DNA from: an uncultured virus (IMG/VR IMGVR_UViG_3300016464_000060) | Taxonomy: Duplodnaviria > Heunggongvirae > Uroviricota > Caudoviricetes | Length of the DNA: 64,000 nt | Virus record (IMG/VR): IMGVR_UViG_3300016464_000060 | Location: 1 to 64,000 of that record | Direction: 5' to 3' (one strand) | Shown: one piece after another, positions 3,571 to 53,489 of the stretch | Layout of the letters: each line of letters opens with the position of its first letter | Numbering within the stretch: position 1 is the first letter of the stretch | Notes under the pieces: generated by a model | Told to the model about the DNA's origin: nothing | Seen by the model: only the letters and a program-made list of their open reading frames with translations | Databases searched by the model: none | Position numbers and translations under genes: made by a program

Positions 3571-3998
3571 TACGCGATCCTTATGATGGCTGAAGTGTTG
3601 GTTATGGCTGGGAATTGTACGGTGAATGTGCTTGTGCTGGTCTTATCTGCCCCGAAATCCAATACACAAATCGCCCCGTTATCCCCGCTCTTATAAATCA
3701 ATGCGCCCCGCGCTGTGATGGCTCCAGTCCACGAGGCGTTATCAAACGAAATATACGAAGTGGCAGCACCTGTCTGGTTACCGATTGTGGGTACTTGAGA
3801 GACAGTCAAAGCCAAACCACCCGCTACATAGTTCCCACCCGTGGCTTCACCAGTCGTTGTGTAGGCTGTTGTAGTCGCATCCAACGTAGCGTTGTTGGTG
3901 TACAGGGCTATGTAGAAAGTGCCGGACGTGAAGTTAAACGAGCCGTTCATCAAGCCCGTTTTAAATGTGTTGCAAGTCCAATTCCCAGTGAAGGCCAT
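3570..3998 (-). CDS. Virion structural protein (paralogue of 2887-3363)
   Basis: FYIALY...TTTAYTTTGEATGGNYVAGG...ARGALIY...VLDFGADKTS. Confidence 0.7.
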   Translation of the reverse strand: MAFTGNWTCNTFKTGLMNGSFNFTSGTFYIALYTNNATLDATTTAYTTTGEATGGNYVAGGLALTVSQVPTIGNQTGAATSYISFDNASWTGAITARGALIYKSGDNGAICVLDFGADKTSTSTFTVQFPAITNTSAIIRIA

Positions 3999-4711
3999 CA
4001 GGTCACCGCCTGTCTATATTGACCAGAACGGTAAGCATCCTGACGCTCCATTCCATCTCCAAGGCGTTTAGCCAAAGCTAGTGCTTCCTTGTACTTGGTG
4101 TCATACAAGGTAATCAAATCCTGCTCGCCCTTCATATAGGTATACGCTTCAACCAGCGAACCGTACAGAAGAACCGTGTCAAAGTTATCACCAAGCCATG
4201 TTGTTGTGGCCGTAGTGATGGACTCTGGGTAATAGTAAAAATGCAACTCTACGTTGTAAGCCGCGTCTGGTGTTGGGCCAAGAATAAACGAGAGTTCGTT
4301 GGTAATCGTGCTACCTGTAATCGTAGGGCCGAATAGTGCGTAGTATTTGGGTAAACCCCTATATGCAGCACCTGTGTCTGGATAAGCCTCGCGGATGAAG
4401 TTCACATCCTTGTTCAATAGATATGTGTATGTCTCGCTGCTTGTGCCATAGTTCTCAATGACCGCCATCGAGTAGGTAGCAAGATAATCATCAGGCGCGG
4501 ACAGGTACTTTAGACCAGTCGTCATTGCACCAATCATGTTTTTGCGCAATGATGGAAACTGTACCGAGTTGTAAATGCGTTGCTCAGCCTGCTCAATCAG
4601 ACGATTAATTTGCTCTGCGGAAGTAACAGTAGTCCCGTCCGCCAAAGTGGTAGACGGAAAGTTGTTCTCCGTATAGGTCTGAATCGCAGTTACTAACTCG
4701 GAATAGTTCAT
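3998..4711 (-). CDS. Head-tail adaptor/neck-type protein
   Basis: 237 aa; MNYSELVTAIQ...AEQRI...PTPD...LLYGSLVEA pattern of podovirus adaptor proteins. Confidence 0.6.
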   Translation of the reverse strand: MNYSELVTAIQTYTENNFPSTTLADGTTVTSAEQINRLIEQAEQRIYNSVQFPSLRKNMIGAMTTGLKYLSAPDDYLATYSMAVIENYGTSSETYTYLLNKDVNFIREAYPDTGAAYRGLPKYYALFGPTITGSTITNELSFILGPTPDAAYNVELHFYYYPESITTATTTWLGDNFDTVLLYGSLVEAYTYMKGEQDLITLYDTKYKEALALAKRLGDGMERQDAYRSGQYRQAVT

Positions 4712-19912: not shown

Positions 19913-20204
19913 TATCCATGATTTGACCGACTGGCTACCAACTCAGACACCCCGCAACCCGCATGAACATTAGCATCCGCCAAAAACTGTCCTTAATATA
20001 TATCTTTTTATTTTATTTATATATATATATAGGGGTATTTATATATATGTGTTTATTTTTATTTTTTAAAGACTTACTTTTGTGGCTTTAGTTTAAGCAC
20101 ATGGTAAAAAATGATAGACACCAAGGACAGTTTTGCTCCATCGCTAGTGTTCATGCGGGCTCCGACATGTCCAAGTTGGTAGCCAGTTGGTTGAATCATG
20201 GATA
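19913..20204. other. Candidate replication origin: AT-rich core between 82-bp imperfect inverted arms
   Basis: Left arm 19913-19994, right arm 20123-20204, core 19995-20122 with (TA)n and T runs. Confidence 0.6.
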
Positions 20205-22963: not shown

Positions 22964-24679
22964 ATGAAACTTTTCTATGTAACTTTCCGTGACCAAAATG
23001 ACGAGCAAACAGAACGCGTCATCATCGGTCAAATCGGTCATCGTTTCTCATACACACGCATCATGCCTACTTGTCATCATGGCGTGTTCAGTGAGAGTAT
23101 CCACAATCCACCACGCTTTACGCGTTACTTCGAGACACGCCATCGTGCAGTGCTCGGGTGCAGGACTGCTGAAGAGGTAGTCATGTGTTTGAACGACCCA
23201 TACCCCAAGTCGCTCATCGTCACGCAGTTCACGCCTGAGCAAGCCAAGTCTTTGCGCACTGTCGGTATTGAGATGTATAAAGAGATAATTTATGCGTTCT
23301 ATCAAGCGTGTAACAACGGCAACTCAAACCGCATCTACAGCAACATGGTGTTTAGACTTAATGCTAAGCAACACCAGCGCGAATACTTTGACTGGCATGG
23401 CAACAATGTGTATCCGCAAAACTACATGGCAATTCGTGCGTTGTATCGTGACCTCGGTGCGTTAGTTGCCCAAGTCGAGCAAGATGGTGACAGCACGCCA
23501 GTCGATGAGTTCCTCATGGACAGATGCGACAGGGCAGGGGTCGATGCCGTTGCGTTGTATGACAGCATCAGCAGTAAAGTCAATCTCGGTCTGACGCATT
23601 GCGACTGCGGGCATCTTGAGTATGACCACAACACAGAAAATGTGCGCAGTGACACATGGTGTCGTCAATGCTTCGAGGATGACGCTGTGTATGTCGAGAA
23701 TCGTGACGAGTATTGGTCACGAGACGATGCGTATTACCACGAGCGCGATGGTTGCTATTACTCGTATGATGAGGATGAGTATGACGAGGATGACGACAGT
23801 CAAGACTCCGATGGACTCATGTCTTACAGCACCAATGTGCTCAACTTTCTCAGCAAGGACTTGACCATCCAGTCGTCTCCGCATGGTGACTTCCTCATGG
23901 GTATCGAGTTCGAGATGGAGACTACAGACGGACACTATGTCAACGATGCAGTCGAGGATGTGCGTGCCCAACTGGGCGAAGAGTATTGCGTGTGTAAGTC
24001 TGACGGCTCGCTGGGTCATCTTGGCTTAGAGATTGTTACTGCCCCGCGTGGTCTTGCCGAGCACATCAGACGCTTCAAGGGCTGGGATGTCAAGTCGCAC
24101 TATCGTGCATGGGATACCAAGCGTTGCGGTCTGCATGTGCACATCGACTCTCGTGCGTTCACGCAGATGACTCTCGGCAAGTTCATCATGCTCATCAACA
24201 GCGATACCAATGTCGAGTTCATACGCAAGATTGCAGGTCGTCATCCACACACCGATGACCAAGCCCGCAGTTACTGCGCGTCCGAGCGCCAAGAGGTTGT
24301 TGTCAATCCCAAGAAGGCAGTCAAGGACAAGTCGCATGAGCGCTATCGCATGGTCAATCTGCAGAACTTGAGCGCTAGAGAGTCCAAGCGTTTGACTAGC
24401 ACCACCGCATATGGCGGTCGCTATGACACTGTCGAGTTGCGTATCTTTCGCGCATCTCTCAGCAAGACGCGTATGTTGGCGCAGATAGAGTTCACCCATG
24501 CGTGTGTGTGCTTCTGTCGTGTCGCATCGTGGCGTGACCTCAATCAAATCAGTTTCGTCAAGTATCTCAAGACTGTCTCCAGTCAGTATCCCAACCTTGC
24601 CGATTGGTATGGCGTGCGTAGACGCTCAGCCAAGGTTACTGCCGAGTCACAGTGCCGTGACGCAGTCGAGTCCGTTTAA
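22964..24679 (+). CDS. Putative amidoligase (COOH-NH2 ligase, glutamate-cysteine ligase-like fold) with Cys-rich and acidic N-terminal part
   Basis: MGIEFE, KSDGSL, LEIVT, CGLHVHI, RYRMVN, TVELRIF motifs. Confidence 0.85.
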   Translation: MKLFYVTFRDQNDEQTERVIIGQIGHRFSYTRIMPTCHHGVFSESIHNPPRFTRYFETRHRAVLGCRTAEEVVMCLNDPYPKSLIVTQFTPEQAKSLRTVGIEMYKEIIYAFYQACNNGNSNRIYSNMVFRLNAKQHQREYFDWHGNNVYPQNYMAIRALYRDLGALVAQVEQDGDSTPVDEFLMDRCDRAGVDAVALYDSISSKVNLGLTHCDCGHLEYDHNTENVRSDTWCRQCFEDDAVYVENRDEYWSRDDAYYHERDGCYYSYDEDEYDEDDDSQDSDGLMSYSTNVLNFLSKDLTIQSSPHGDFLMGIEFEMETTDGHYVNDAVEDVRAQLGEEYCVCKSDGSLGHLGLEIVTAPRGLAEHIRRFKGWDVKSHYRAWDTKRCGLHVHIDSRAFTQMTLGKFIMLINSDTNVEFIRKIAGRHPHTDDQARSYCASERQEVVVNPKKAVKDKSHERYRMVNLQNLSARESKRLTSTTAYGGRYDTVELRIFRASLSKTRMLAQIEFTHACVCFCRVASWRDLNQISFVKYLKTVSSQYPNLADWYGVRRRSAKVTAESQCRDAVESV

Positions 24680-24706
24680 TTTCAATAACCATCAGGAGTA
24701 TTTATT

Positions 24707-25792
24707 ATGTGTTTAATCATTACAGGTCAGTCATCCAAGATTCGTTCAACTCTGCTCGACACAGCAGGTATGCTCGGCGAAATCTATTCATCCAACCCCG
24801 ATGGTATTGGCATCATGTATGCAACAGCCAAGGGACTCAAAGTTGTCAAGACACTCCCCAAGAATGTCAACGATGCCACAGCGTTCATCCGCAAGTTACC
24901 TAGTGACGAGCGCGAACTTGCTATCCACTTCCGTTGGACTACGCATGGCGACACCGACATGCTCAACTGCCATCCATACGATGTCGTCACGGGCTATGTT
25001 GCGATGATGCACAACGGCGTGTTGCATACGGGTAATAGTGCAGACACTTCCAAGTCTGACACTTGGCACTTCATCAATGACTATCTCAAAGATGCTGTGC
25101 ATGACGCGCCCAATCTCGTGCATACCGAGGGCTTCCTCACCTTGCTTGCTGACTTCATCGGTGACAACCGCTTCGTGTTCATGGACGGCGATGGGCGTAT
25201 GTCTCATGTCAACTATGACCAAGGCATCGAGCACGATGGTCTGTGGTTCAGCAACACATATGCATGGAAGCCAGCGACTCTCATCCCCAACTACTACAAG
25301 TCCAGCAAGCACTACAACTATGCCAACTACAACAGCGCATACAACAACTACATGGACGATGAGTGGGAGATGGAGACATGGAACAACTCGTTCGCAAGCA
25401 AGTCTCTCGACTACAAGCCTGTGTCTGCGCATAGCGCACAGTGGCAAGACGATGACTATGAGGACGCTGTTACATCTGCCGAGATGTGCCAAGCACTCAA
25501 CGAGTGCGATGTCGATACTGTCGAGTCATACCTTGAGACCTTCCCTATCACATTCATCAACACCGTCTACAACGAGATGTCGCCCATCGCCACACGCTAC
25601 ACAACCATCAATGACCTAGTGAGTTACGAGCAAGATGTCTACAAGGCGTTGCTTGACTGTGACCTCGCTGCGTTGCATGACTTCGTGCGTGACGGCAAGT
25701 CTGCGTCCGTTGTAGCCGAGGTGATGTGCTACTACATGGAGTGGTATTACAAGAACGAGACAACTCGCCCTCTGTTGCCCGCCATGATGTAA
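24707..25792 (+). CDS. Class II (Ntn) glutamine amidotransferase
   Basis: N-terminal MC, NPDGIG, HFRWTTHG, NCHPY, MMHNG, SDT. Confidence 0.9.
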   Translation: MCLIITGQSSKIRSTLLDTAGMLGEIYSSNPDGIGIMYATAKGLKVVKTLPKNVNDATAFIRKLPSDERELAIHFRWTTHGDTDMLNCHPYDVVTGYVAMMHNGVLHTGNSADTSKSDTWHFINDYLKDAVHDAPNLVHTEGFLTLLADFIGDNRFVFMDGDGRMSHVNYDQGIEHDGLWFSNTYAWKPATLIPNYYKSSKHYNYANYNSAYNNYMDDEWEMETWNNSFASKSLDYKPVSAHSAQWQDDDYEDAVTSAEMCQALNECDVDTVESYLETFPITFINTVYNEMSPIATRYTTINDLVSYEQDVYKALLDCDLAALHDFVRDGKSASVVAEVMCYYMEWYYKNETTRPLLPAMM

Positions 25793-29018: not shown

Positions 29019-29435
29019 GACAAGCATTAGAAATGGCACTTGAGGCGTTGGAACGTAGTGTTGCGACTTGTTTTGACCAGCGTTCACATGATGAAGTAAT
29101 GGGCAGACCAGAGCATTTTGTAAACCGAGCCATCACCGCCATCAAAGAAGCATTAGCACAACCAGAGCAAGAGCCTGTGGCGTTCTACGTTTACAAGCCT
29201 ACGTTACCTCGAGGACATCTTGGGAATGTCTCAGACGGTGACTTGCCTTGGGTGTATGACCAAGACCCATCATCAGGATATTCGGCAAGGATGCTTGTCT
29301 ACACCACCCCACCACAGCGCNNTTGGGCTGACGGATGAGGATAAACAAACCGCTTTTGATGCTACTCAAGAAGGCGGTGGCTTTTGGGAATTCGCTGATG
29401 CAATCGAAGCCAAACTCAAGGAGAAGAACACATGA
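29015..29435 (+). CDS. Modular hypothetical protein broken by an assembly ambiguity
   Basis: ALAQPEQEPVA...YTTPPQR[nn]GLTDEDK...AIEAKLKEKNT; frame change sits at 'nn' 29321-29322. Confidence 0.6.
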
Positions 29436-31272: not shown

Positions 31273-31938
31273 ATGGTTACCACCACTAAAGAAGAAACAG
31301 GCGTTATCTCTGCACCGAAGTTCGGTACAGTTAAATTCATCATTGAGGGCACAGCCCCTTTGGTTGTTGAACGCTTTAGTAAGAAAGCAGAGTTGATGGC
31401 TAAGATGGCAGAAGGTCCATCCGCCAAGAACAAGAAGAACCGCGAAGCGCGCGACTACGACAAAGAAGCAGAGGAAGCACGCTACAGAAGCCCCGAGAAA
31501 TGGGAAGGTATGAACGCTGCAGCCTTTCGTGCGGCCATGATCAGTGCGTGTCGTCTGGTCGGATTCAAGATGACGCTGGCTAAACTATCCACGTTCGTCG
31601 AAGCCGATGGCTTTGATGTAAATGATGGCGTCCCTCTTGTGCGTATTTATGGGCAAAGCCATACTTACACAGCACATACAAGAAACGCTACTGGCGTGGT
31701 GGATGTGCGCTCGCGTCCTATGTATCGCAACTGGGCGGCTTGCCTGTCTGTGCGCTACGACATGGATCAGTTCAAGATGTCAGATGTACTCAACCTCGTA
31801 GCGCGTTGCGGTATGCAGGTTGGTATTGGGGCAGGCCGACCCGACAGCAAAGCAAGTGCTGGTTGTGGCTTTGGTCTTTTTAGAGTTGTGCCTACTGAAC
31901 AAGCGAAAGGAGTGATGAAGAAGTACGGCATTAAATAA
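31273..31938 (+). CDS. Stand-alone RAMP/Cas7-like protein
   Basis: 221 aa; first strand FIIEGTAPL, helix AAAFRAAMISA (cf. RAMP PxSSxKGxxR), RPMYRNW, C-terminal Gly-rich loop GIGAGRP...GCGFGLF. Confidence 0.65.
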   Translation: MVTTTKEETGVISAPKFGTVKFIIEGTAPLVVERFSKKAELMAKMAEGPSAKNKKNREARDYDKEAEEARYRSPEKWEGMNAAAFRAAMISACRLVGFKMTLAKLSTFVEADGFDVNDGVPLVRIYGQSHTYTAHTRNATGVVDVRSRPMYRNWAACLSVRYDMDQFKMSDVLNLVARCGMQVGIGAGRPDSKASAGCGFGLFRVVPTEQAKGVMKKYGIK

Positions 31939-31939
31939 C

Positions 31940-32339
31940 CACCGCAGGCATGTCTAGGCGCAGATCGGCGCGGTCAGGCTCGGCTTGGCAAGGTGTGGTA
32001 AAGCACGGCAGGCGTAGCGGGGTGAGGCGTGGATAGGACGGGCAAAGAACGGTCAGGCAAAGCACGGCAGGCGGGGCGGCGCAAGGCGAGGCGAGTTCTG
32101 GTTTGGTTGGGCAATGCACGGCAGGCGTGGCTAGGCTGGGCTTGGTTCGGCGCAGAGTGGCGCAGTGAGGCAAGGCAGGCGGGGCGGGGCGCCGTTCGGT
32201 ACGGAGGGTTCCGTTAAGGTACAGCAAGGCAGGCTAGGTGAGTCCGAGATAGGTGTGGCATGGCAAGGCAGGTATGGCCCGGCGTGGCTCGGAATGGTGC
32301 GGCAGATCACGGTACGGCAAGGCACAGCACCGCAGGCAT
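31940..32339 (+). repeat. Non-coding (GGY-NN)n pentamer array in 7 units, candidate guide-RNA array
   Basis: 72 pentamers, 49 starting GGY; units at 31947, 32011, 32070, 32124, 32178, 32232, 32271; flanked by direct repeat CACCGCAGGCAT. Confidence 0.9.
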
Positions 32340-32357
32340 TTTTTAACAGGAGAAACA

Positions 32358-32822
32358 ATGAGTTATGAATTAGAAAGAACAGTGTTAACAACCATCGCTA
32401 AACAAAACGATGGCATCTTGCAAGTAGATGATGTGCTTGCAGAGGCAAGCAACGAGGACAGCCCATTACATAAACATTTTGAGTGGGACGACTCGGTTGC
32501 AGCCGAACAGCACAGACGCTATCAAGCAAGGGTGTTAATTCAGAAGTGTCACATCACGCTAGTAGAAAGCGAGCCTACAAAAATACGGGCGTTCGTTAGT
32601 CTGCAAGCTGATCGTGACGAGGGCGGGGGCTACCGCCTGACAACATCGGTGATGAGTGATGAAGAGTTACGCGAAGAGTTACTGCATGAGATGAGTCTGA
32701 CGATTGCTCGTTGGACGCGTAAGTTGCACCTACTAGATTCGTTGACCACAGAACTTATCTTGCAGTTGGAGAATCAAGTAACCCCCAAGAAAGTTAGTAA
32801 CGTAAGAAGGATAAGCGCATGA
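32358..32822 (+). CDS. Unknown 154-aa protein directly after the array (candidate accessory subunit)
   Basis: Start reassigned to ATG 32358 after CAGGAG; VLAEASNEDSPLHKHFEWDDSVAAEQHRRYQARVLI. Confidence 0.75.
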   Translation: MSYELERTVLTTIAKQNDGILQVDDVLAEASNEDSPLHKHFEWDDSVAAEQHRRYQARVLIQKCHITLVESEPTKIRAFVSLQADRDEGGGYRLTTSVMSDEELREELLHEMSLTIARWTRKLHLLDSLTTELILQLENQVTPKKVSNVRRISA

Positions 32823-43419: not shown

Positions 43420-43594
43420 GAGGGGGCAGGGGTTCTTTATCCCCTGCCTTGATACGGACGGCGTGCGTGAAGAGGGATTAAAGCAGGCAGTACGCCTGCG
43501 TATCCTCGATGCCAAAGCCTACCCCGCAGTTCGCAACGACCTTATTGGGGTATGGTTTTATCGGCCACCTCACGCATCCCAGAAGCAAACTTGA
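43382..43594 (+). CDS. Small hypothetical protein, last gene of plus-strand arm
   Basis: YPW...GQGFFIPCLD. Confidence 0.55.
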   Translation: MKLKIHYPWDQTERGQGFFIPCLDTDGVREEGLKQAVRLRILDAKAYPAVRNDLIGVWFYRPPHASQKQT

Positions 43595-46500
43595 TCTTGG
43601 TTTGACGAACCTTGTCGAGTTGCTGGCGCTTTTCGATGGGTGACAAGTTAGATGCGCGGATGGCTGTCTCGTATTGAGTTAGTTCCCGTATTGTTGAAGT
43701 GTAGTAGTCAGCCATTTCGGATGCCATGTACTCGTTGCCCCGCTTCTGTAAGAGCGCCATAGCCTCTGCGCGTTGACCTTTTAATAGCATGTCGTCCACA
43801 GTGTTCTGCACCTTTTGGACTTCTAGCATGCGGTCATACATGTTTGTAATGATCGCACCAGCATCGTTAGGCTGGAACGCACCACCAATCAAAGGCATTT
43901 CGGACAAGCGCTTGTACGCTTTTTCTGGCGTGCCTGTAGGGCTGTAGCCAATACTCAGGGCTTGCATCAAAGCCAAACCTAAACCGCCTGTGTAGCCTTG
44001 CACCAAGTGCTCGATCATGATGGGCGACACGCCACCCGCTTTGCCCAAAGACTTGGCTATTTCAGAAGTCTGTTCGCGGAACTGCTGTTCTGGGAGCAGG
44101 CTCTTTTCTTGTGCCGACAAAATGTCGCGGCCTGTGTAGAACGACTTGCCCAGTTTGGCTTCGACATATGGCTTGAGTGCCTGTGGAATTCCGTAGGATG
44201 TACCGCCCGGAATAGTTTGCAACAAGATTTGTTCAAACGCTTTTACTGCGTCTTCGCCGCCGTGTTTATCAACCATCGAGTTATACAACGCTTCTGGCAG
44301 CGCTTTAAAGATATAGCCAATCTCAAACGGAACAGGCAAACGCACAGGCTCATCAACACCCGGCACACGTATAAACCAGTTGCCGTATTTTTGGTCAGGC
44401 GTAGCGTTTTTGTATGCTTCGTCGTCTTGCATCATTGCGGTGTACGCCAGCGTACCAGCCGCCAACATCATGCCTCGGGTCAGCAGTTTTTCTTGAATCT
44501 TCAAACGCTCGTTGAATGGCATCTTGCCAAACAACGACTTGTACAGCACATTGAGTGACTGAATCTGTGCGTTAAAGAAAGGAATCAGCGACGAAATAAT
44601 GTGGATGCTAGGTGACGCACCCCGCTTGTTAAAGTTCATGGACTCTAACGCCATCAGCGTAGCTTCCATCTCAGACAAACCTTGTTTGATGTAGCTGTTG
44701 TACTGAGCGCGGCGGGTTGTCGCATCTGCCTCCATCGTCATGGCTTCCCACTTAGACAAACTGTTTAACCAGCCCGGCTTGTTTTCAGACATGCGCTTCA
44801 AGATCATGGTCAGGTCTTCGGTTGTACCTGTAAAGATTTGACCGCCAGTAATACCACGGGACTCCAAAACGCCTTTGGTTGGGCTACCAATTTCTTTAAG
44901 TGCGCCCATGACAGGTGAAAAGTTAGCGCCAGCCAAAATAGGGGCGGCCAACGAATCACGGAACAACTGCTTAGCGCTATACAACGGAAGTGCCGTCACA
45001 GCTTTACGTAACAACCTAGCCGGCGCGCCCATCGCACGGAATATGACTGGCATCTGCGTTGGGATACCTTCCATGCCCTTAACAAGCAAATCGCCCGGAA
45101 TTTCGCGTGTGCCTTGGATCATGGCGTATTTATCAACACCATCGACCTTAAACTTAACAATGTTGGGGCCGTCAGTTCTACCAACAAACTTAGCCAAATC
45201 AATACTTTCTAACTCAAACACTGCGTTTTTGGTTGCCATATTGCGCAACGCCATGTCCACAATCATGTTTGTGTTTTGCACAGAGCTTGTTAAAAAGTCT
45301 AGGATCGGTCTATCGCCACCAATTAACTGATGCAAGTATGGCTGTTCGGCAATGCTTCCAATACGGATAGGCGTTTCTTTTCCAATGATTAGCTCAGCAA
45401 CGCCGTTGCGCTCACGATACCAAGGAATGTAGTCGTCGTTCTTAACAAGGTCAGCCGCTACTTCTTTAGTAATAACACCTGTTCGCTCCAGCAACTTAAT
45501 CAAGTTTCTGTTGTATGCGTTGTACTCTTTGCGGGCACGGTCAAAGTTAGCTTTCAAACCGGGCGTTGCTTCAATCGCACGCATCGCTTGGTCAAGCTGT
45601 GCTTGTGTTACTTTGCCACCAAAGTTAAGAGCATCAAGCCCCTTGTCTTTGGCACGGATAGCCGACATGTATAGCGTAAACAAACGCTGGGCGGCTTCTG
45701 GGCTGCCGGCTGGCGCATCTTTTAAAATGTTAACCACGCTCTTAATGCTTGGACCCGCTTTGCTGGCAAATATATGTTCCGTTCTACCGTCTTTGCGAAC
45801 AATGTCTTGCAACTCAATAGCGCCATTGCCAACAGACTGAGCCGTAAAGTTCATGCGTTGGTCGTACATACGCAAGTAGTACATCATTTGGCTGCCTTTA
45901 AGCGGCTCCATTACTTTGGATAGACGCTCAAAACCTGCAAACCTATCAACCAACTGAGTTTCAAACGCTACGCCAGAGCCATTTGCTCTGACGCTGTCAT
46001 ACCAACTCTTATCTGTTGCAATAGCGGCGTCAGATGTGCGACCTGCCTCGGCCAAAAGCCCGTTGGCGTAACGAACTGCTTCACTCTTCATAGCCAGCAT
46101 GCCGGTTGGGGACACGTAAGTACCAGCCAACTCTTGCTGCATCTTGCGTGTGGCTTGGAACAGTGTGTAATACAAATCGTTTGTAGACACGTTGGCGGCG
46201 TTCATTAGCCCCATGCTCTTTAGTGCGCTACGAATAGCGCCAAGAATAACTTTGATATAACGCCCCATCTTTTCAACAAAAGACTCGTCGACAGTGCGCT
46301 CTTGCAAAGTAGCCAACATTTCGCGCACAGCCTGCACTTCACCAATACGACGCAACTTTGCCGCTTCTTCCACGTTGCCTTTGGCTTCTGCAGCCAATGC
46401 TTTGTTTTCCCACGCTTGAGCAGTTTTGGCAACATCAGACTCAACGCCCAACGCCTCGGCCATGCCGTATATACCGCCTTCAGAAGTGCGGATGGCCTTA

Positions 46501-49500
46501 GCCAAGTCCGCCATACCTTGGGGGCCAAGCACTATGTCAACGCCATAGTGACCAATTGTTTCGTGCAGTATTGTTTTCTCAAGATCAAGTAGTGAGTCGT
46601 GCATGTTGCCAACCACCACTACCGTTCCGTCTGGCAGTACGCCTCCCTTGACGGCACTAGCTTCAATGTCCACACCATCCATAGCCAAGGCGCGTAAGAA
46701 CTTAACAGGCGCTTCGTTTAATGTCGGTGCGTAAACAAACTTAACATCTTTAGGCAACTTCTTGGCAAACTCGTCTGCCATTTTCTTGGCTTGGTCTGCA
46801 TCAACTGGGTTAGTAGGCACAGCGCCCTCATAGCGCAACACGGTGCCGCTATCGTTCTCACTACCAGCGTTAGTTAATTTATCAATGTACGTATCGACAA
46901 GTTCACGCAAAACCTTCTTGCGTTCTGCGCTACCTTCGGGGTACATTTTTGCCAACCTGTCGGTCTTAGCCAACTGCATGGCTTGGCGTCTAATCTTGAC
47001 TTCGGCTGAAGTTGCAGATTTCAAAGAGTCGTTACGCTTAATAAGCGGTTTAACGTCTGTGTTTTTCTCTTGACGTTGCAGCGTGCGCATGGTCTTGGCC
47101 ATGTCAGCTGTATTCTCTGCAACAGACACACGTTGGGCTTTAGTTGCCTCCGGTGCTTTAGGAACAATAAACTCGTCTGCTGCTTTCTTGGCAGCAAAAT
47201 ATTGCTGGGTAAGCGTATTGATGCGCTCTTCGTTCTTGGCATCCATTGGGCGCAACTTCTCTTGACGAGTCGTTACCACACCTTCTAATTGCGCCACGGC
47301 GTTTGTAAGTTCTGTCTTACGGCGGTTGTAGCCACCCTCGGTCATACGGCTAGTACCGCGATCCCACGCCTCGTTTAATAAACGTAACTGCGTTTTAGCA
47401 GAGTCAAGTTGGTCTTGGGCATTGCGTAATGACTTACGTGCAGTACTAAGATCTGTTTGCCCCACAAGTGTGCGGGCATGTTCAATCTCTTTGCGCAAGC
47501 GTTCTTGGTCACCACGCGCTTTAAAGTAAGCGTTCTGGTCTTTCTTACTCAACCCCATGACGGCTTCTTGAACTGCCACAGTTGCGTCAAGTTCTATAGG
47601 CTCTGCGCCCATTTCTTCCACGACAGTCACATAACGTGCACCTGCCAAGTCTTCCATGAGTTTTTGTTTGCGTTCTAAGTTAGCGGTCGCTAACTCAATC
47701 TGCTTGTCTGTGCCTTGTCTTTCGGCACGAGCCAGCGCACTACGGGCTTTCTTCAACTGGTCGTATGCTTTAGACGCGTCCAACCCCTTGCGCTTCTTAT
47801 CGTCGTCGTTAGCATCTGGGTCTTTAGCAGGGTCGTAATCAAACACGGGGCCTTCGGCTGTGTAGCGCACAGTCCAGCCAGCGTTCATGGTTTGTACTTG
47901 GCGTTGTTCGCCAAACGTACCTGTAATCTCTGCAGCCTTTGCGCCTTCAGCGCTCAACGCCTTAACACGCTTAACTATCGTGCCGGGCAATCCAAGGCCG
48001 TTATCCAGCGCAGTCTTCAGCGCAGGAGAAACCAACGGTTGCTTAGCCTCAAAGAACGCTTGCAAACCTACATTAGACTTACGAATCTTGGCATTTGCTT
48101 CATCAACAACCGCTTGTGCCTGCACCAATGCCGCCTTGCGCTTAGCAATCTCTGTGCGTTTCTTAGTGTCTTCTGCACGTAAAGCTTGTTCAGCCGCTTT
48201 AACTTTTGCCCAAGCATCTTTTAACGCGCTATCTGCGCGTACCAACATTTGCACATCAACTTCTAACGCCGTTGTCAAGTTGGCGTCCATTGTCTTTATG
48301 GTTTTGTCTATGGTTTGGATGCGCTCGCGCAACTCATAGATGTCTTGGTTAAAGTCAATAAAAGCTTGTTTGTTTGTAGGCGGCTCGGCTCTGGCCAACT
48401 TTGCCAAAGCATCAACCACAGTACCGCGCTCGTTACGAAGTGCTTCTACTTCCTCTGTATGCTGTTTCATCACAGCATCTTTAATTTCTTGCGCACGCGC
48501 CAGCGCTCTACCAAACGCAGTCTTTAATGGCGCAGCAGGGTCTATATCAGAATTAAACTCCTCCATAAAACTTTCAGTCATGCGCTGCAGTCGGCCTTCT
48601 GCCGTTTGCAAAAACTGCATAGTCTCTAAGTCAGAACGCAAACTAATTAAATTTTGTATTTCAAAATAACTAAGCACACGTTGGTCAGGCGTTTCGCCTT
48701 TCATGCGCTTACTTAACACTTTAATTTGGCTATTTAAAACACCAATGTCTTTTTGGGTTTTGTTTAAAGTTGGTTGCTCTTCTGTCAAAGCAGTAAACGT
48801 AACTTCTGGTTTTACCAATCCGTTTTTACGAACACGCTCGTCGGTAGCATCCATGACGCGTTTGGCATCGTCCACTGCTTTTTGTGCAACCAATAACGCG
48901 TCGGCTGTCTCGGGCATGGCTTCTGCAGCCTGTGCCAACTCACTAACCAAATCAAGTTGGGCATCACTGACAGTAAGCAAAAAGCTTTTTGCTCGTGCTT
49001 CAAACTCGTCGGATAATTTACGTAGTCTTTTTTCTTCTTCCCTGTAAAGTGTAATAGTTGCATTTGCAGCACGATTAGCTTTGACGCCTTCAAGTAATTG
49101 TTTTTCTTCTTCAGCAGTAAGCGGATGTGCTTTTAAATATTCAGGCGTTATTTGGATAACCGTTGTTGGGCCTGTACGCATACCAACAGCGCGCGCACCT
49201 TCTCTAAGGGCAAACAAATATTTTTCATGTACTAAGTCGGCCTTGCGTTTGTACTCGCCCGACATTTCGTTGTAATACTGCGATGTAGTTGGCAAAGAGC
49301 CCCTGCCCATTTTGCGCAAATTAGCCAACACGGTATTAGCCGTTACATAGTCTGTTCGTACTTGGTACAACTCCGCCTGTGTAACAGGCAAAGTAGCAAC
49401 GGTTTCTTTAGCGGCTTTGCGTAATTTAGCAATCTTGCCGTATTTGCTAGAGCCTAAAAACTTTTCCGCAGACTCAAAGACCATGCCTTTTTCTGGCACT

Positions 49501-52500
49501 TCACCAAACATGTCTTGGGTAAATAAGTCTTCAGTCTTGCCTGTAGAAAACAACCCGATGTCTTGCAAAGCTTTTTTGTTCTTGACGTAAGCAGTCTCTA
49601 AACTGTCAAGCAGTTTGTTTAACTCTTTAACACGGCGTAGTTGACTTTCGTTAAGCGGTCTGCGTGGTGGGACGCGTTCGCCAAGACGTACTTCTTTTTG
49701 TTCTACAGGCTTTAATCCTGTAGCAATTTCTTCCAATTCCGCTTTGGCGTCTCTAATGGCGGTACTAAGCACGCGGTCGTTGTCTTCAAACTCCGTGCCT
49801 AACTCGGTAGCCATATCTTCGCTAAGACCTAACTCGTGCATGCGTTGTAGCGACTTAGCAACCGTGTCGTAATCTTTAGCAACAAACGCTTCTTGGGCTT
49901 TAGCCTTTAATTCATCCAACTCATCACGGCGCTCTTTAAAGTCAAGCGGTAGAGTTGGCGGTTGTACCTTGGCTTCTTCGGATTTAACAAACTTGTCGTA
50001 GTTGTCACGCAGTTTGGCAATCTCGTTTACCAACTTTTCGCGTTCGGCTTTCTTGCCATGAACGCCTTTGAGTTTTTCCAATTCTTTTTCTTTGGCAACA
50101 ACAGCGTCCATTAAGCGTTGTTTAATACCCATTGGTCCAATACCTGCCGCACGGGTAGGCTTGGTTGGCTCGGTTGCTTTTTCAACTACAGCGTCTAACT
50201 GTTCTTGGATAGACTCCAGCGCACGAGGCAAACTGCCAAATGGCCGGCGCTCTAATGCACGAATGTCTTTCTGGAATGTGCCATATGTAGCGTGTTTGCG
50301 CCCCAAGTCGGACAGCATCTGGGCAATCTGCTGCGATATTTCTGAGTCGCGTGCATTGAGTTTGGTAAAACCTTCTTTGACTTTAAGATACTTTTGTTGC
50401 TCTGCTTCACGCGCTGCATGCTCTGGCGTACCAAGTTTACCGTCTGGCATAGCTTGCCATTTCTGACGCGCAGGCTCAAGAAAGTTTTGCTGGTAGTTCT
50501 TCATCTGCTGGCGCACGCGTTGCAATTCTTCTTGCAACGACTTCAGTTTGCCAACAGCACGGTCTAGTTTCTTTTGCTCTTCGGGTGTGCGAACGTACTT
50601 TTCTCCGGCGTAAACCAGCTCGCCTGTTTCTGTACGCTTTTCTTCCGCTTCTTTTTGTGACTTAATTAATGGCTCTTGCACCTTGCCCGTTACTTCAACA
50701 GTCTTGGGTCGTGCCAAGTAACGCGTGCTTAACTCCATCAAAGGTCTAGACAACTGATCCGTTATTTGTAATACATCCGTAGCCGTTAGACCGGGCTGAC
50801 GTTCAGCGGCTCGACCATGCGCTATCTCAGACAGCGCAGCTTGCACATACAAGCGGCGTAAAGTAACTAAGCGTTTTGCGTCTAACGTATCGAGCACCGG
50901 TTTGTTTGACGCTTTAGCCCGTGCTAACCAGCCCAGTAATTGCTGGAATATTGCTTCTTTCTTTTCTGCTTGACGCCGCGCTTCCAGTTTGTGGCGCATA
51001 GCGCTTACTTTGTCAGTAGGCGCAGTTTTAATGTCCGCCGCACCGCTAATACCCAACGCTTGGGCTAAGTCGTTTGCATCTTTAGTTTTAATTTGCTCTA
51101 ACGGTGGCAGTTTTGTGCTGACAACTTCTGGGCGATGTAGCGTCTTGGTCAGTTCTTCTGCTGTTTTTTCTTCGCGCACACCAACGCCAGTCTTAGATTG
51201 CAACTCTGTAATGTGGTTTAACAGGCGTTGTGCTTCTTCTGCTTGTACGTCACGGCGGATAATGTCTTTGGCGGCAGGCGTTAGCCGACCTTCCATGTCG
51301 TATAGTTTGTTTTCTGTAAACTGATCGTTTACAAATTTAAAGTCCTCTTGTGCTTGGGCTTTGTGTTTTGCCAGCACATCGCGCAATTTGTTGCGAACTT
51401 GCGTAGCAGTTTCTGGGTTATTTAAGTCTAGTGTGGCATTACCAAAACCAGTAAGACCCAGAGCTTGGCGCACTTCTGCCGTAATCAATCCAGTATCAAT
51501 GGCTTCTTGGACAGAAGTTTTGCCGCCAACCAGTGTTTCTTTTTCTATCCGTGCGGCTTCAGCATCCGTAATGTCTTTGGCTTTGCCTTGCGCGTCCACG
51601 ATGTACGGCACACGGCGCGTGGGGCCGGTAGTGCCTTCAACGGGCACATCACGGTACAAAACTTTTTGCCTTTGTTCTGGAACTTGACCTTTGCGCAGGG
51701 CTTGCGCATACTGTTCTGGCGTTAATTCAAACTGTTTACCGACTTCACGTTCGGTTAGTTGTTGTTCGTACTCTTGGCCTTGGGCAAACAAAGCCTGTTG
51801 CTGTTGGGTCTGGGCTTCCCGTTTCTTGCGTTCTGCCTCAGTCTCAAACTTACCGAACCCTTCTTCAATTTCGGCAATATCTTGTTGGAGTTGGCGCTTT
51901 TCGTAGCCCGGAGCAAACATATCCATCTGCTCTTCAGGCATAGCCCGCACCTCGCCCGGCCTAATTTCACTAGGCACCATGCGTGTTTCTGCGGCGCGTT
52001 GTTTGTTTATTGCATCAAGCTGCTGGGCTATCTGGCTAACTTTGGCGTAGTCGCCAACACTTCTGGCTTCTGCCATTTGTGCGTATAGTGAGTCAGCACT
52101 TACTTCTTTTGGCTGTGTCTTCTTTATGTCTGCTATAGCCAACCGCGCTTTTTCTTCTGCGCTTGCTAACTGTTGAAGTTGCAAAGCCAGCCGCGACACG
52201 GTGGCCATGTCGTTCCTAGCCTCGGCCTCGTCCATTTGTCTTTGTAAAGCGGGGATGGCAGTGCTATATCCGCGCATCTCTTGTTCTAGGCGCTGTTGCT
52301 CTTGTCTAAGTTCATCTTGTTTAGCAAGACGTTCTTCATCTAACTGTTGGGGTGTTTTAAGTGGTGAGTATTCCCCCGCTTGTAGGGTATCTCCCATTAA
52401 CGCCAACAGTTCTGGCGTGCCTGTCTTGCGTGCTTCTTCTAGCGCAGCCTTACGTTTTTCAGCCTCTTCTGTCTCTTGACGTAAGCGCTCTTCTTCTTGC

Positions 52501-53489
52501 AACGTCTTGAGTTGTTCGGCGGCTCGCTCTTCTTCCGTCTTGCGGGCAATATCGGCACGGGCTGCAGCTTTGTCTGAAAACCGGCCAGCCGCACCAATAG
52601 GAGAAAGCAAACCAACCTGATAAGCTGTTTCTCCGTACTCTTTCAACGCATCCGCATTTGTTAGGGATAACCCTGCTTGTGCCCGTTCCAACATCTGTTG
52701 GGCAATTTCGGTTGGAATTTCCGCCAGTGCGCCGGTAGTAATACCTTTACGTAAGGTTGTCAGTAATTTTTCTTCCGCTAAAGCAGCGGCTTTACCAGCA
52801 GTATCGCCAAGCAACGCTTTCTCAGGTATGCCGGTTAGTTTGCTAACAAGACGCCCACCTAAAGGAATAAAGCTACCCGCTACATCAAGCGCGGCTTGAG
52901 GAACAGCGGCTGCAGCAGCAGCGCTTCGACTGATCGGTGCTCTTTCTTGAACTTGGCGTTCAATGTTTCCACCAAACTGGGTTAACAATGACGGGGCTAA
53001 TGCTCCACCAACACCACCAATTACAGAACCAACAGGGCCTGCTAATGAGCCAAGTGCAGCACCGGCACGCGCACCACCTAACGTAGCGGCAATATTTGGG
53101 GCTTGTTCAGCAAGGGCAGCAGGAATTTGACTTAACGCTTCTCCCGCCGCAGGCAAAATACCGCGCTGTTTGTATGCGTCAATAACTTTGTCAAGGCTAA
53201 CTTGTTCGGCGTAGCGAGAGCCTATATCACGCCCGCGTTCTATGCCTTTGCGTCCAGCTTCTTCTGGTGCACCAACTAAAGCGCCTATACCCGTGCGGGC
53301 TTGTGACAGTAAAGATTCCGCACCTTTGCCAAGCGCTGCCCCAAGACCTTCTTTGGCTAACCCAACGCGCTCGTAAAAGTCGGAGATTGGCATCTCCGGA
53401 TAAAACTTGTTATGTAGTGCATCTGCCAGTTCCCTATCGCTTAACTCGTTATATTGCGGGTATTGCTGGCGGATTTCACTAATTTTCAT
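43542..53489 (-). CDS. Giant polyvalent internal virion/ejection protein with zincin-like motif and LPD38-like C-terminus
   Basis: 3315 aa; Gly/Ala hydrophobic N-terminal region, long coiled coils, ILHETIGHYG, IPFFNAQIQ...RLPVPFEIG. Confidence 0.75.
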   Translation of the reverse strand: MKISEIRQQYPQYNELSDRELADALHNKFYPEMPISDFYERVGLAKEGLGAALGKGAESLLSQARTGIGALVGAPEEAGRKGIERGRDIGSRYAEQVSLDKVIDAYKQRGILPAAGEALSQIPAALAEQAPNIAATLGGARAGAALGSLAGPVGSVIGGVGGALAPSLLTQFGGNIERQVQERAPISRSAAAAAAVPQAALDVAGSFIPLGGRLVSKLTGIPEKALLGDTAGKAAALAEEKLLTTLRKGITTGALAEIPTEIAQQMLERAQAGLSLTNADALKEYGETAYQVGLLSPIGAAGRFSDKAAARADIARKTEEERAAEQLKTLQEEERLRQETEEAEKRKAALEEARKTGTPELLALMGDTLQAGEYSPLKTPQQLDEERLAKQDELRQEQQRLEQEMRGYSTAIPALQRQMDEAEARNDMATVSRLALQLQQLASAEEKARLAIADIKKTQPKEVSADSLYAQMAEARSVGDYAKVSQIAQQLDAINKQRAAETRMVPSEIRPGEVRAMPEEQMDMFAPGYEKRQLQQDIAEIEEGFGKFETEAERKKREAQTQQQQALFAQGQEYEQQLTEREVGKQFELTPEQYAQALRKGQVPEQRQKVLYRDVPVEGTTGPTRRVPYIVDAQGKAKDITDAEAARIEKETLVGGKTSVQEAIDTGLITAEVRQALGLTGFGNATLDLNNPETATQVRNKLRDVLAKHKAQAQEDFKFVNDQFTENKLYDMEGRLTPAAKDIIRRDVQAEEAQRLLNHITELQSKTGVGVREEKTAEELTKTLHRPEVVSTKLPPLEQIKTKDANDLAQALGISGAADIKTAPTDKVSAMRHKLEARRQAEKKEAIFQQLLGWLARAKASNKPVLDTLDAKRLVTLRRLYVQAALSEIAHGRAAERQPGLTATDVLQITDQLSRPLMELSTRYLARPKTVEVTGKVQEPLIKSQKEAEEKRTETGELVYAGEKYVRTPEEQKKLDRAVGKLKSLQEELQRVRQQMKNYQQNFLEPARQKWQAMPDGKLGTPEHAAREAEQQKYLKVKEGFTKLNARDSEISQQIAQMLSDLGRKHATYGTFQKDIRALERRPFGSLPRALESIQEQLDAVVEKATEPTKPTRAAGIGPMGIKQRLMDAVVAKEKELEKLKGVHGKKAEREKLVNEIAKLRDNYDKFVKSEEAKVQPPTLPLDFKERRDELDELKAKAQEAFVAKDYDTVAKSLQRMHELGLSEDMATELGTEFEDNDRVLSTAIRDAKAELEEIATGLKPVEQKEVRLGERVPPRRPLNESQLRRVKELNKLLDSLETAYVKNKKALQDIGLFSTGKTEDLFTQDMFGEVPEKGMVFESAEKFLGSSKYGKIAKLRKAAKETVATLPVTQAELYQVRTDYVTANTVLANLRKMGRGSLPTTSQYYNEMSGEYKRKADLVHEKYLFALREGARAVGMRTGPTTVIQITPEYLKAHPLTAEEEKQLLEGVKANRAANATITLYREEEKRLRKLSDEFEARAKSFLLTVSDAQLDLVSELAQAAEAMPETADALLVAQKAVDDAKRVMDATDERVRKNGLVKPEVTFTALTEEQPTLNKTQKDIGVLNSQIKVLSKRMKGETPDQRVLSYFEIQNLISLRSDLETMQFLQTAEGRLQRMTESFMEEFNSDIDPAAPLKTAFGRALARAQEIKDAVMKQHTEEVEALRNERGTVVDALAKLARAEPPTNKQAFIDFNQDIYELRERIQTIDKTIKTMDANLTTALEVDVQMLVRADSALKDAWAKVKAAEQALRAEDTKKRTEIAKRKAALVQAQAVVDEANAKIRKSNVGLQAFFEAKQPLVSPALKTALDNGLGLPGTIVKRVKALSAEGAKAAEITGTFGEQRQVQTMNAGWTVRYTAEGPVFDYDPAKDPDANDDDKKRKGLDASKAYDQLKKARSALARAERQGTDKQIELATANLERKQKLMEDLAGARYVTVVEEMGAEPIELDATVAVQEAVMGLSKKDQNAYFKARGDQERLRKEIEHARTLVGQTDLSTARKSLRNAQDQLDSAKTQLRLLNEAWDRGTSRMTEGGYNRRKTELTNAVAQLEGVVTTRQEKLRPMDAKNEERINTLTQQYFAAKKAADEFIVPKAPEATKAQRVSVAENTADMAKTMRTLQRQEKNTDVKPLIKRNDSLKSATSAEVKIRRQAMQLAKTDRLAKMYPEGSAERKKVLRELVDTYIDKLTNAGSENDSGTVLRYEGAVPTNPVDADQAKKMADEFAKKLPKDVKFVYAPTLNEAPVKFLRALAMDGVDIEASAVKGGVLPDGTVVVVGNMHDSLLDLEKTILHETIGHYGVDIVLGPQGMADLAKAIRTSEGGIYGMAEALGVESDVAKTAQAWENKALAAEAKGNVEEAAKLRRIGEVQAVREMLATLQERTVDESFVEKMGRYIKVILGAIRSALKSMGLMNAANVSTNDLYYTLFQATRKMQQELAGTYVSPTGMLAMKSEAVRYANGLLAEAGRTSDAAIATDKSWYDSVRANGSGVAFETQLVDRFAGFERLSKVMEPLKGSQMMYYLRMYDQRMNFTAQSVGNGAIELQDIVRKDGRTEHIFASKAGPSIKSVVNILKDAPAGSPEAAQRLFTLYMSAIRAKDKGLDALNFGGKVTQAQLDQAMRAIEATPGLKANFDRARKEYNAYNRNLIKLLERTGVITKEVAADLVKNDDYIPWYRERNGVAELIIGKETPIRIGSIAEQPYLHQLIGGDRPILDFLTSSVQNTNMIVDMALRNMATKNAVFELESIDLAKFVGRTDGPNIVKFKVDGVDKYAMIQGTREIPGDLLVKGMEGIPTQMPVIFRAMGAPARLLRKAVTALPLYSAKQLFRDSLAAPILAGANFSPVMGALKEIGSPTKGVLESRGITGGQIFTGTTEDLTMILKRMSENKPGWLNSLSKWEAMTMEADATTRRAQYNSYIKQGLSEMEATLMALESMNFNKRGASPSIHIISSLIPFFNAQIQSLNVLYKSLFGKMPFNERLKIQEKLLTRGMMLAAGTLAYTAMMQDDEAYKNATPDQKYGNWFIRVPGVDEPVRLPVPFEIGYIFKALPEALYNSMVDKHGGEDAVKAFEQILLQTIPGGTSYGIPQALKPYVEAKLGKSFYTGRDILSAQEKSLLPEQQFREQTSEIAKSLGKAGGVSPIMIEHLVQGYTGGLGLALMQALSIGYSPTGTPEKAYKRLSEMPLIGGAFQPNDAGAIITNMYDRMLEVQKVQNTVDDMLLKGQRAEAMALLQKRGNEYMASEMADYYTSTIRELTQYETAIRASNLSPIEKRQQLDKVRQTKIKFASGMREVADKTIPQ

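Follow-up and report, generated by a model that had tools for sequence, protein, structure and literature searches.

A probable VIPR locus with a staggered guide array in a 68-kb freshwater phage

Introduction

Which kind of system is formed where a phage carries a lone Cas7-like gene, a patterned non-coding array and one further small gene in a row? The question is raised by a 1.55-kb cassette of an uncultured virus (IMG/VR record IMGVR_UViG_3300016464_000060), studied here in a window of 64,000 nt, i.e., bases 1–64,000 of the 68,169-nt record, which carries a terminal repeat and is classed as complete. A first-pass annotation made from the letters alone had described a 221-aa open reading frame (ORF), the array and a 154-aa ORF with its own ribosome-binding site on one strand, along with the motifs IEGTAPL, AAAFRAAM and GIGAGRP..GFGLF in the translation, all of which are present in the sequence. 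It had also pointed to VIPR, a CRISPR-related RNA-guided DNA silencer reported in a 2026 preprint, in which staggered VIPR arrays are named and not tested (10.64898/2026.04.26.720920). In the SUSP1 and P. fulva systems, as described in two further preprints, one protomer is bound per repeat, an R-loop triplex forms and transcription is silenced; a satellite is immobilised via its recombinase, and the accessory gene is needed in infection (10.64898/2026.04.26.720927; 10.64898/2026.10.15.759431). Another preprint counts 99 VIPR-like array clusters, non-canonical triplets included (10.64898/2026.10.21.760802). The cassette is composed as follows:

31273..31938, + strand: vipr gene for a 221-aa RAMP (Cas7-like) guide-binding protein, assigned from ORF, fold and profile homology
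31941..32339, + strand: staggered vrRNA array of seven modules, with an 11-nt direct repeat at both ends (31941 and 32329), from sequence
32339..32357, + strand: T run and AGGAGA ribosome-binding site in the gap between array and partner gene, from sequence
32358..32822, + strand: vap-like partner gene, 154 aa, phrog_15946, an ORF with the AGGAGA site upstream

The locus very probably belongs to a VIPR system with a staggered array, and its freshwater phage of 68 kb is likely lytic. Together, vipr and one accessory gene, carried by a phage without a CRISPR array, constitute a minimal VIPR locus. Class 1 CRISPR-Cas was rejected as an identity, as no repeat/spacer array and no cas genes were recognised among the ORFs scanned; plain satellite DNA was also considered for the array and rejected.

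The Vipr protein

The RAMP/Cas7 fold proposed in the first-pass annotation is supported by AlphaFold2, Foldseek, VIA-align and hhalign, which agree. The AlphaFold2 model of the 221-aa protein, built on a 131-row alignment, has a predicted local distance difference test score (pLDDT) of 92 and a predicted template modelling score (pTM) of 0.86; a single-sequence model (pLDDT 33) was discarded. The matches listed by Foldseek are class 1 CRISPR effector complexes, the best being Csm3 complexes (E 3.5e-5), and VIA-align places 135 residues on a Csm complex with a Z of 10.1 and a root-mean-square deviation of 3.7, its top 27 rows all being CRISPR RAMP entries. SUSP1 Vipr (36pp) is the only match of the vipr family profile in the PDB (E 5.4e-7), which, together with an array and a code that fit the preprints, bears out the resemblance to VIPR noted in the first-pass annotation. 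Aligned directly by hhalign, the two proteins share 172 columns at 23% identity (95.6% probability, E 1.2e-8), including R138 of the SUSP1 thumb and R179 of its G-loop, conserved here as R148 and R189. In architecture, the protein is a RAMP with one RRM, a thumb and a G-loop, and it is a homologue of the Vipr proteins already described.

E33 and A187 are fixed in 120/120 close homologues; in the wider alignment of 131 rows, position 187 is Glu in 96, and Ala in all 8 rows that carry E33. Homologues of vipr numbered 5,483 among 5,661 candidates, with 2,063 cluster representatives at E <=0.001. Pfam and NCBIfam hold no family for either the 221-aa or the 154-aa protein, and PHROGs places them only in families of unknown function.

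Architecture and grammar of the array

The array contains 30 GGY-NN-GGY pairs, compared with 3.3 +/- 1.8 (maximum 10) in 2,000 dinucleotide shuffles, and the next best 400-nt stretch elsewhere in the window contains five on the + strand and three on the - strand. It is composed of seven abutting modules of 64, 59, 54, 54, 54, 39 and 64 nt, each of 5n+4 length and joined at GGCAGGC, and the register slips by one base at each GCAGG junction. The constant 5-nt GGY-NN register claimed earlier thus stands as a pattern (49 of the 72 triplets are GGY) and falls as a continuous frame. Guides overlap by 1 nt, the end of one being the start of the next, as in the wording of the legend of fig. S18 in the VIPR preprint. 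Tandem Repeats Finder reported only a weak 15-nt piece of the array, Rfam gave no match anywhere in the window, and the array RNA folds no better than shuffles (z +0.82). The guide format of type II VIPR, with separate guides and a structured 3' tail, was rejected: the modules abut without a tail and without excess folding.

The grammar was followed through a related set of 41 viral loci (L001–L040 among the labels), of which 40 extend beyond vipr and one is cut inside it. An array lies behind vipr in all 40 loci with downstream DNA, as expected if protein and array belong together, which the first-pass annotation had proposed as a check. Measured from junction to junction in the window and the related loci, 377 of 389 modules have a length of 4 mod 5. 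When the 257 unique modules are compared, positions 1 and 2 are G in 90% and 88%, position 3 is a pyrimidine in 84% and A in 15%, and positions 4–5 are near uniform.

Several observations concern the range of such arrays. L012, L019, L013 and L022 carry 16–24 modules per array (up to ~1.2 kb), compared with 4–13 in most relatives, and in L013 and L032 an extra short ORF of ~80–90 codons separates vipr from the array. Cyanophage Cy-LDV1 (L467:3115-3300, 3915-4060) and Mycobacterium phage Saal (L468:2063-2310) share with the window vipr, the partner family and GGCAGGC-joined arrays; in Saal, the array extends into what is annotated as the 5' end of gene 51. The set recurs in 27 mycobacteriophage and 4–5 Gordonia phage records. 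These cultured or named phages are ready experimental models of the staggered subtype.

Recognition code and targets of the guides

The published code, in which each NN pair reads two target bases and the next base is skipped (10.64898/2026.04.26.720920), was applied to the seven guides. Six of them fall in codon register on conserved motifs, the skipped base being the codon wobble position:

31947..32010, + strand: guide 1, 12 units, antisense to TFKECAEAYI of P4/IntA-type tyrosine integrase
32011..32069, + strand: guide 2, 11 units, antisense to WV[FL]RYTSPT in the arm-binding domain of P4/IntA-type integrases
32070..32123, + strand: guide 3, 10 units, no target found
32124..32177, + strand: guide 4, 10 units, antisense to ATAEKHYT, a motif of a second integrase family at the end that holds the catalytic tyrosine
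32178..32231, + strand: guide 5, 10 units, sense to GGASTGPKTK of an HGGxSTG-domain gene
32232..32270, + strand: guide 6, 7 units, sense to YDRYVIK of a Sak4-like single-stranded-DNA-annealing ATPase of other phages
32271..32334, + strand: guide 7, 12 units, antisense to box I of phage-type tyrosine integrases, read as [FL]VVLAIETGM

The ten-unit, 20-base skip pattern of guide 1 has 43 exact matches in GTDB genomes, compared with ~1 expected by uniform-base arithmetic, and 42 of these lie in the integrase frame TFK[ED]CA[ED]AY[IM], one in a broken ORF. These targets match the NCBIfam PRK09692 integrase domain with a score below its cut-off, and the match titles name Limnohabitans, Polynucleobacter and Methylopumilus, as well as many Alphaproteobacteria. 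In viral contigs, the 8-unit pattern gave 23 matches, one of them in an integrase (22/24). Guide 2 matches in frame in integrase ORFs in 35 of 71 metagenome matches, 21 of which carry the exact dinucleotides of the window, and its variant in L001 and L002 exchanges one arginine codon block for the other. The guide 4 core has 18 exact matches in 16 of 301 genomes of the family of G001, all at ATAEKHYT (reversed control 0), and eight of its 22 viral matches are to the same motif, the site lying within the PF00589 match; the search with nine units and one mismatch found none in 127 genomes, as the majority of targets encode the serine at unit 9 by the other codon block. The weakest integrase assignment is that of guide 7: five of 251 genomes match within two mismatches (control 0), and two of 21 viral matches are of the integrase kind. 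The five comprise two PF00589 integrases (19/20 and 18/20), two unrelated matches and one 20/20 match in a short ORF at a contig end, in which PF00589 was not detected.

The remaining guides point to two other families. For guide 5, 29 of 42 viral matches follow the CxxH of the HGGxSTG domain, L424 at 20/20, and the target family is NF041373 (E 1e-15). For guide 6, searched with a pattern that included an eighth unit taken from a relative's version, 119 of 120 among the matches listed lie in a Sak4-like gene (phrog_124, E 1e-45) at 27 different site sequences. The earlier suggestion of targets in competing phages or host genes is narrowed by these matches to genes of competing mobile elements.

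The code was assessed across the clade on sets of target genes. The integrase set, defined as the 43 ORFs matched by guide 1, is matched in the antisense skip-1 setting by 25 of 236 unique clade guides at >=90%, nine perfectly, four of the 25 being guide-1 variants. On the same set and threshold, seven other skip/strand settings gave 1–5 matches, none perfect, five shuffles gave 1–4, and flanking DNA gave 5 (1 perfect). When 146 guides were compared with 75 integrase genes, 33 reached >=87%, 32 of them in the wobble register. The Sak4 set is matched at >=92% by four of 146 guides under skip-1 and by none under other skips or in shuffles, and three clade guides other than guide 6 match other sites of the Sak4-like gene perfectly (controls 0); on the HGGxSTG set, four clade guides other than guide 5 match at >=87% (other skips 0–2, shuffles 0–1). 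Integrase-matching guides are antisense in 33/33 cases, while Sak4 guides are sense in 4/4 listed and HGGxSTG guides in 4/5, a strand bias that may stem from the way guides originate or from one strand being the more effective one for silencing. By these sequence statistics, the 1-nt-skip, wobble-aligned code holds here.

Within the guides, units behind GGA or other variant triplets match no worse than units behind GGY (0.964, 0.963, 0.968). Pairing is weak at the 3' end: out of 2 possible matches, the last two units reach 1.07 and 0.90 on average and the junction unit reaches 0.45, as measured in 29 guides selected for a 92% core match, in which the cores match by construction. Triplets are associated with the neighbouring NN (chi-square p ~1e-15 and 5e-10, related modules not being independent). 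Two accounts of the triplets were rejected or left without support: triplet base 3 is not a copy of the skipped target base (49/219 equal, 52.5 expected), and a placement of variants that avoids folding finds no support, as z averages 0.13 and is positive in 56% of 255 modules.

The phage and its relatives appear to be spared. The 236 guides, searched against the own genome and the 40 related loci, showed no skip-1 excess (at >=80%, 42 matches under skip-1, 31–43 under other skips and 34–47 in shuffles), and no anti-vipr guide was found in that search. The best self-matches of the window guides are 12/14 or lower fractions, and the phage itself has no PF00589, phrog_124 or NF041373 gene.

In freshwater Burkholderiales, the guide-1 integrases lie in small islands with an AlpA-type gene and often a primase and an HGGxSTG gene. 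The ~5-kb island of G082 (L459:6017-10875) encodes an integrase, AlpA, a primase-polymerase, a primase-helicase and an HGGxSTG protein, in this order, and no structural gene was seen in it. The island is matched by guide 5 at 17/18, and its integrase by four clade guides. Judged by gene content, such islands look like satellites, and some integrase matches may be prophages or other islands. The combination of integrase, AlpA and primase is that of elements of the phage-inducible chromosomal island (PICI) type. Small islands of integrase, AlpA-type excisionase, primase/polymerase fragment and HGGxSTG gene, with no structural genes seen, were also observed in L198, L197, L171 and L460. The longer HGGxSTG proteins of phage contigs presumably resemble small terminases, as judged by eye; a literature search on the name HGGxSTG found no paper. 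The host of the phage is plausibly a member of the Burkholderiales.

Module exchange between phages

The Vipr proteins of the window, L001 and L002 are identical, with agreement at 657 and 661 of 666 nt, and their modules run in the orders 0-1-2-3-4-5-6, 0-2-3-7-1-6 and 0-5-8-3-7-1-6, respectively. Phages that are nearly identical thus differ by the exchange and rearrangement of whole modules. The 32 distinct arrays contain 191 module families, of which 58 occur more than once (that of guide 6 in 12 arrays), and the order differs in seven of the 34 array pairs that share at least two families. Contigs from three of four runs compared, from separate studies, have joints inside the array, several at or near junctions and two with new modules; their flanking genes differ by few letters, and short-repeat assembly artefacts are possible for the array joints. 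The likely route of exchange is recombination.

The partner gene

The partner gene is located behind the array in 40 of the 41 related loci, the remaining one being the locus cut inside vipr, and its family is also found 3' of vipr in Cy-LDV1 and the mycobacteriophages. No homologue was matched in SUSP1, and hhalign of a shallow partner profile with SUSP1 Vap1 gave a probability of 0.3%. Family profile searches matched no nuclease family, and searches of the ESM Atlas and PDB sequences returned unnamed viral clusters and chance-level matches only. A complex prediction of Vipr with the partner scored 0.00, which speaks neither for nor against an interaction.

Proposed mechanism and alternatives

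We propose that vipr, array and vap would be transcribed as an operon with the early and replication genes. By homology, Vipr would polymerise on the RNA with one subunit per 5-nt unit, hiding the triplet and presenting NN, and the 4-nt GGCA step would break the register and delimit seven guides, cut or uncut. As the match statistics suggest, the 5' units of each guide would pair with double-stranded DNA at two bases of three, skipping the wobble position. Bound filaments, if they act as in SUSP1, would block transcription of the integrases of islands and prophages and of the HGGxSTG gene, and likewise the Sak4-like recombination gene of rival phages, such that competitors would be kept immobile during infection. 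Guides, which are seen to change as whole cassettes, would be renewed by recombination at the shared junction. Array transcription, junction processing, binding, repression as the output and the role of the partner are all drawn by analogy.

A wider proposal is more tentative, and we regard it as quite possible without favouring it: the staggered subtype might be a VIPR branch of distinct mechanism in which a one-base register slip delimits guides without tail or ribozyme, a rebuilt G1 pocket, with Glu on the sheet replacing the Asp of the G-loop, tolerates non-GGY triplets, and GGCAGGC doubles as a recombination joint for guide trading, yielding a Cas1-free adaptive memory against the integrase-AlpA-primase-HGGxSTG islands of freshwater Burkholderiales, a large family that has been described but little.

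Several points weigh against the assignment to VIPR and the mechanism proposed. In the array, 23 of 72 triplets are not GGY (e.g., AGC, AGA, GGA and GTT), and changes of GGY to AGY or GGA are among the perturbations that abolish SUSP1 silencing (10.64898/2026.04.26.720920). According to hhalign at 23% identity, H17, D177 and W178 of SUSP1 Vipr correspond to E33, A187 and G188, and D177A is reported to abolish silencing in SUSP1 (10.64898/2026.04.26.720927). Since D177 is needed in SUSP1 but is Ala here, the Vipr of this clade probably reads G1 differently, as far as so distant an alignment can suggest. A wobble-skipping pattern can match well-sampled families by chance, as illustrated by guide 2, for which none of 46 viral matches is an integrase and 32 are one unrelated phage gene. 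Guide 3 has 17 viral matches without a shared in-register family and none in 251 genomes, and guide 5 does not exceed its control in two genera (1/127, control 4; 0/201, control 1). With a host that is only plausibly one of the Burkholderiales, the sharing of a cell by phage and targets is presumptive. Metatranscriptome contigs (X19) are scattered on vipr, the 3' end only of the array, and vap, and are not evidence of transcription; moreover, staggered arrays are outside those confirmed by small-RNA sequencing in the VIPR preprint (10.64898/2026.04.26.720920).

Among the alternatives, the one that survives best differs from the proposed mechanism in maturation only. The array could remain an unprocessed multi-guide RNA or an mRNA-embedded scaffold, with seven filaments on one transcript, as would suit the lack of a tail, hairpin or ribozyme between modules, the absence of an adjacent Cas6-like gene and a junction that is merely a 4-nt step. 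Conversely, the junction is conserved and the last two units pair weakly, which looks like an end signal, and the legend of fig. S18 speaks of 'individual processed vrRNAs', for which the main text holds no confirmation in staggered arrays (10.64898/2026.04.26.720920). We therefore consider an uncut RNA possible, though unlikely.

A second alternative retains the code and changes the output: with a distinct partner, the complex might cut DNA, block recombinase access or replication, or bind mRNA. No relation of the partner to Vap1 was detected and no family is assigned to it, VIPR types III–V encode predicted nucleases or helicases (10.64898/2026.04.26.720920), and all 33 integrase-matching guides are antisense and complementary to mRNA, as RNA targeting would predict just as well. 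However, the Sak4 guides (4/4 listed and guide 6) and four of five HGGxSTG guides are sense, so that both strands are used, as in DNA targeting, and the partner matches no nuclease family; this makes an output other than a block of transcription rather improbable. The last alternative, a degenerate satellite or decaying VIPR whose matches are chance hits on conserved motifs, could draw on the multi-match viral family of guide 2, the targetless guide 3 and the altered pocket residues, but it is largely refuted by the 236-guide integrase test and is very improbable, given that several distinct sites within one gene family are hit by independent guides, and this only in the skip-1, wobble register, that E33 and A187 are fixed in 120/120 close homologues, and that one module is common to 12 of 32 distinct arrays. 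A VIPR system silencing genes of mobile competitors therefore remains the preferred interpretation of the locus.

Genomic context and occurrence

The cassette is placed among early and replication genes, and the window encodes terminase, portal, major head protein, DNA polymerase A, helicase and primase. A profile search of the 68,169-nt record found no PF00589 integrase, and the phage, having tailed-phage genes and lacking such an integrase, is therefore likely a lytic tailed phage. The window or part of it was found in 20 of 24 listed runs from 11 studies, mostly of fresh or brackish water. The vipr start, like that of the partner, is preceded by a similar T run and AGGAGA; a promoter and terminator scan, which was uninformative, called no sigma-70 promoter or terminator in the array–partner gap.

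Elsewhere in the window, the early region holds an Amidoligase_2 gene that adjoins one for a class II glutamine amidotransferase (22964-25792), a pair known in other phages. A 3,315-aa ORF on the - strand (43542-53489), with no PHROG match at 1e-5 and with DNA-ejection and endolysin-like genes as neighbours, is probably a giant internal virion protein. An AT-rich tandem tract at 19996-20066, where gene directions diverge, is a candidate origin or promoter region, and ambiguous bases at 29300-29320, with X in the translations near 29330, mark a small assembly gap outside the cassette.

Significance and comparison with known systems

The VIPR class, its code and structure, staggered arrays and recombinase targeting are already in the preprints. 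Staggered-array targets, processing or turnover, HGGxSTG or Sak4 targets and the pocket change were not found in the texts of the VIPR preprints, whose supplements may hold such data, and a literature search found the term 'staggered' among the 2026 VIPR papers only in the discovery paper. Three questions are concentrated in the 1.55-kb cassette, namely, how tail-less arrays yield guides, how guides turn over without Cas1, and whether a looser triplet code is read without the G-loop acid. The decoded guides also provide a map of the enemies of the phage clade (three integrase families, HGGxSTG islands and Sak4-bearing phages). For multiplexed repression, the 221-aa protein together with its natural array of seven guides is a compact candidate.

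The closest counterpart is the staggered VIPR of the discovery paper (10.64898/2026.04.26.720920), with which the locus shares a lone RAMP that a phage carries beside a single accessory gene, the alternation of GGY and NN, a 1-nt overlap between guides, the 1-nt-skip code with wobble alignment and the lack of self-targets. It is placed there by the wording of text and legend. In contrast to that text, which holds no targets or small-RNA data for staggered arrays, six of seven guides are decoded here and module exchange is seen.

Like the type II VIPR of SUSP1, the locus has a homologous Vipr and targets the recombinase of an integrated parasite in the wobble register. Whereas the SUSP1 guides are described there as separate ~100-nt RNAs with a 3' pseudoknot tail that flank genes, those of the window abut, are tail-less and lie between genes; the targets are broader here, comprising three integrase families, HGGxSTG and Sak4, and the partner gene has no similarity to Vap1 that hhalign with a shallow profile could detect. 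With Cas7, Csm3 and Cmr of class 1 CRISPR, Vipr has in common the RRM core, the thumb and the glycine-rich loop (Z 8–10 to Csm/Cmr subunits), but a 5-nt step with gapped pairing takes the place of the 6-nt step and near-contiguous pairing found there.

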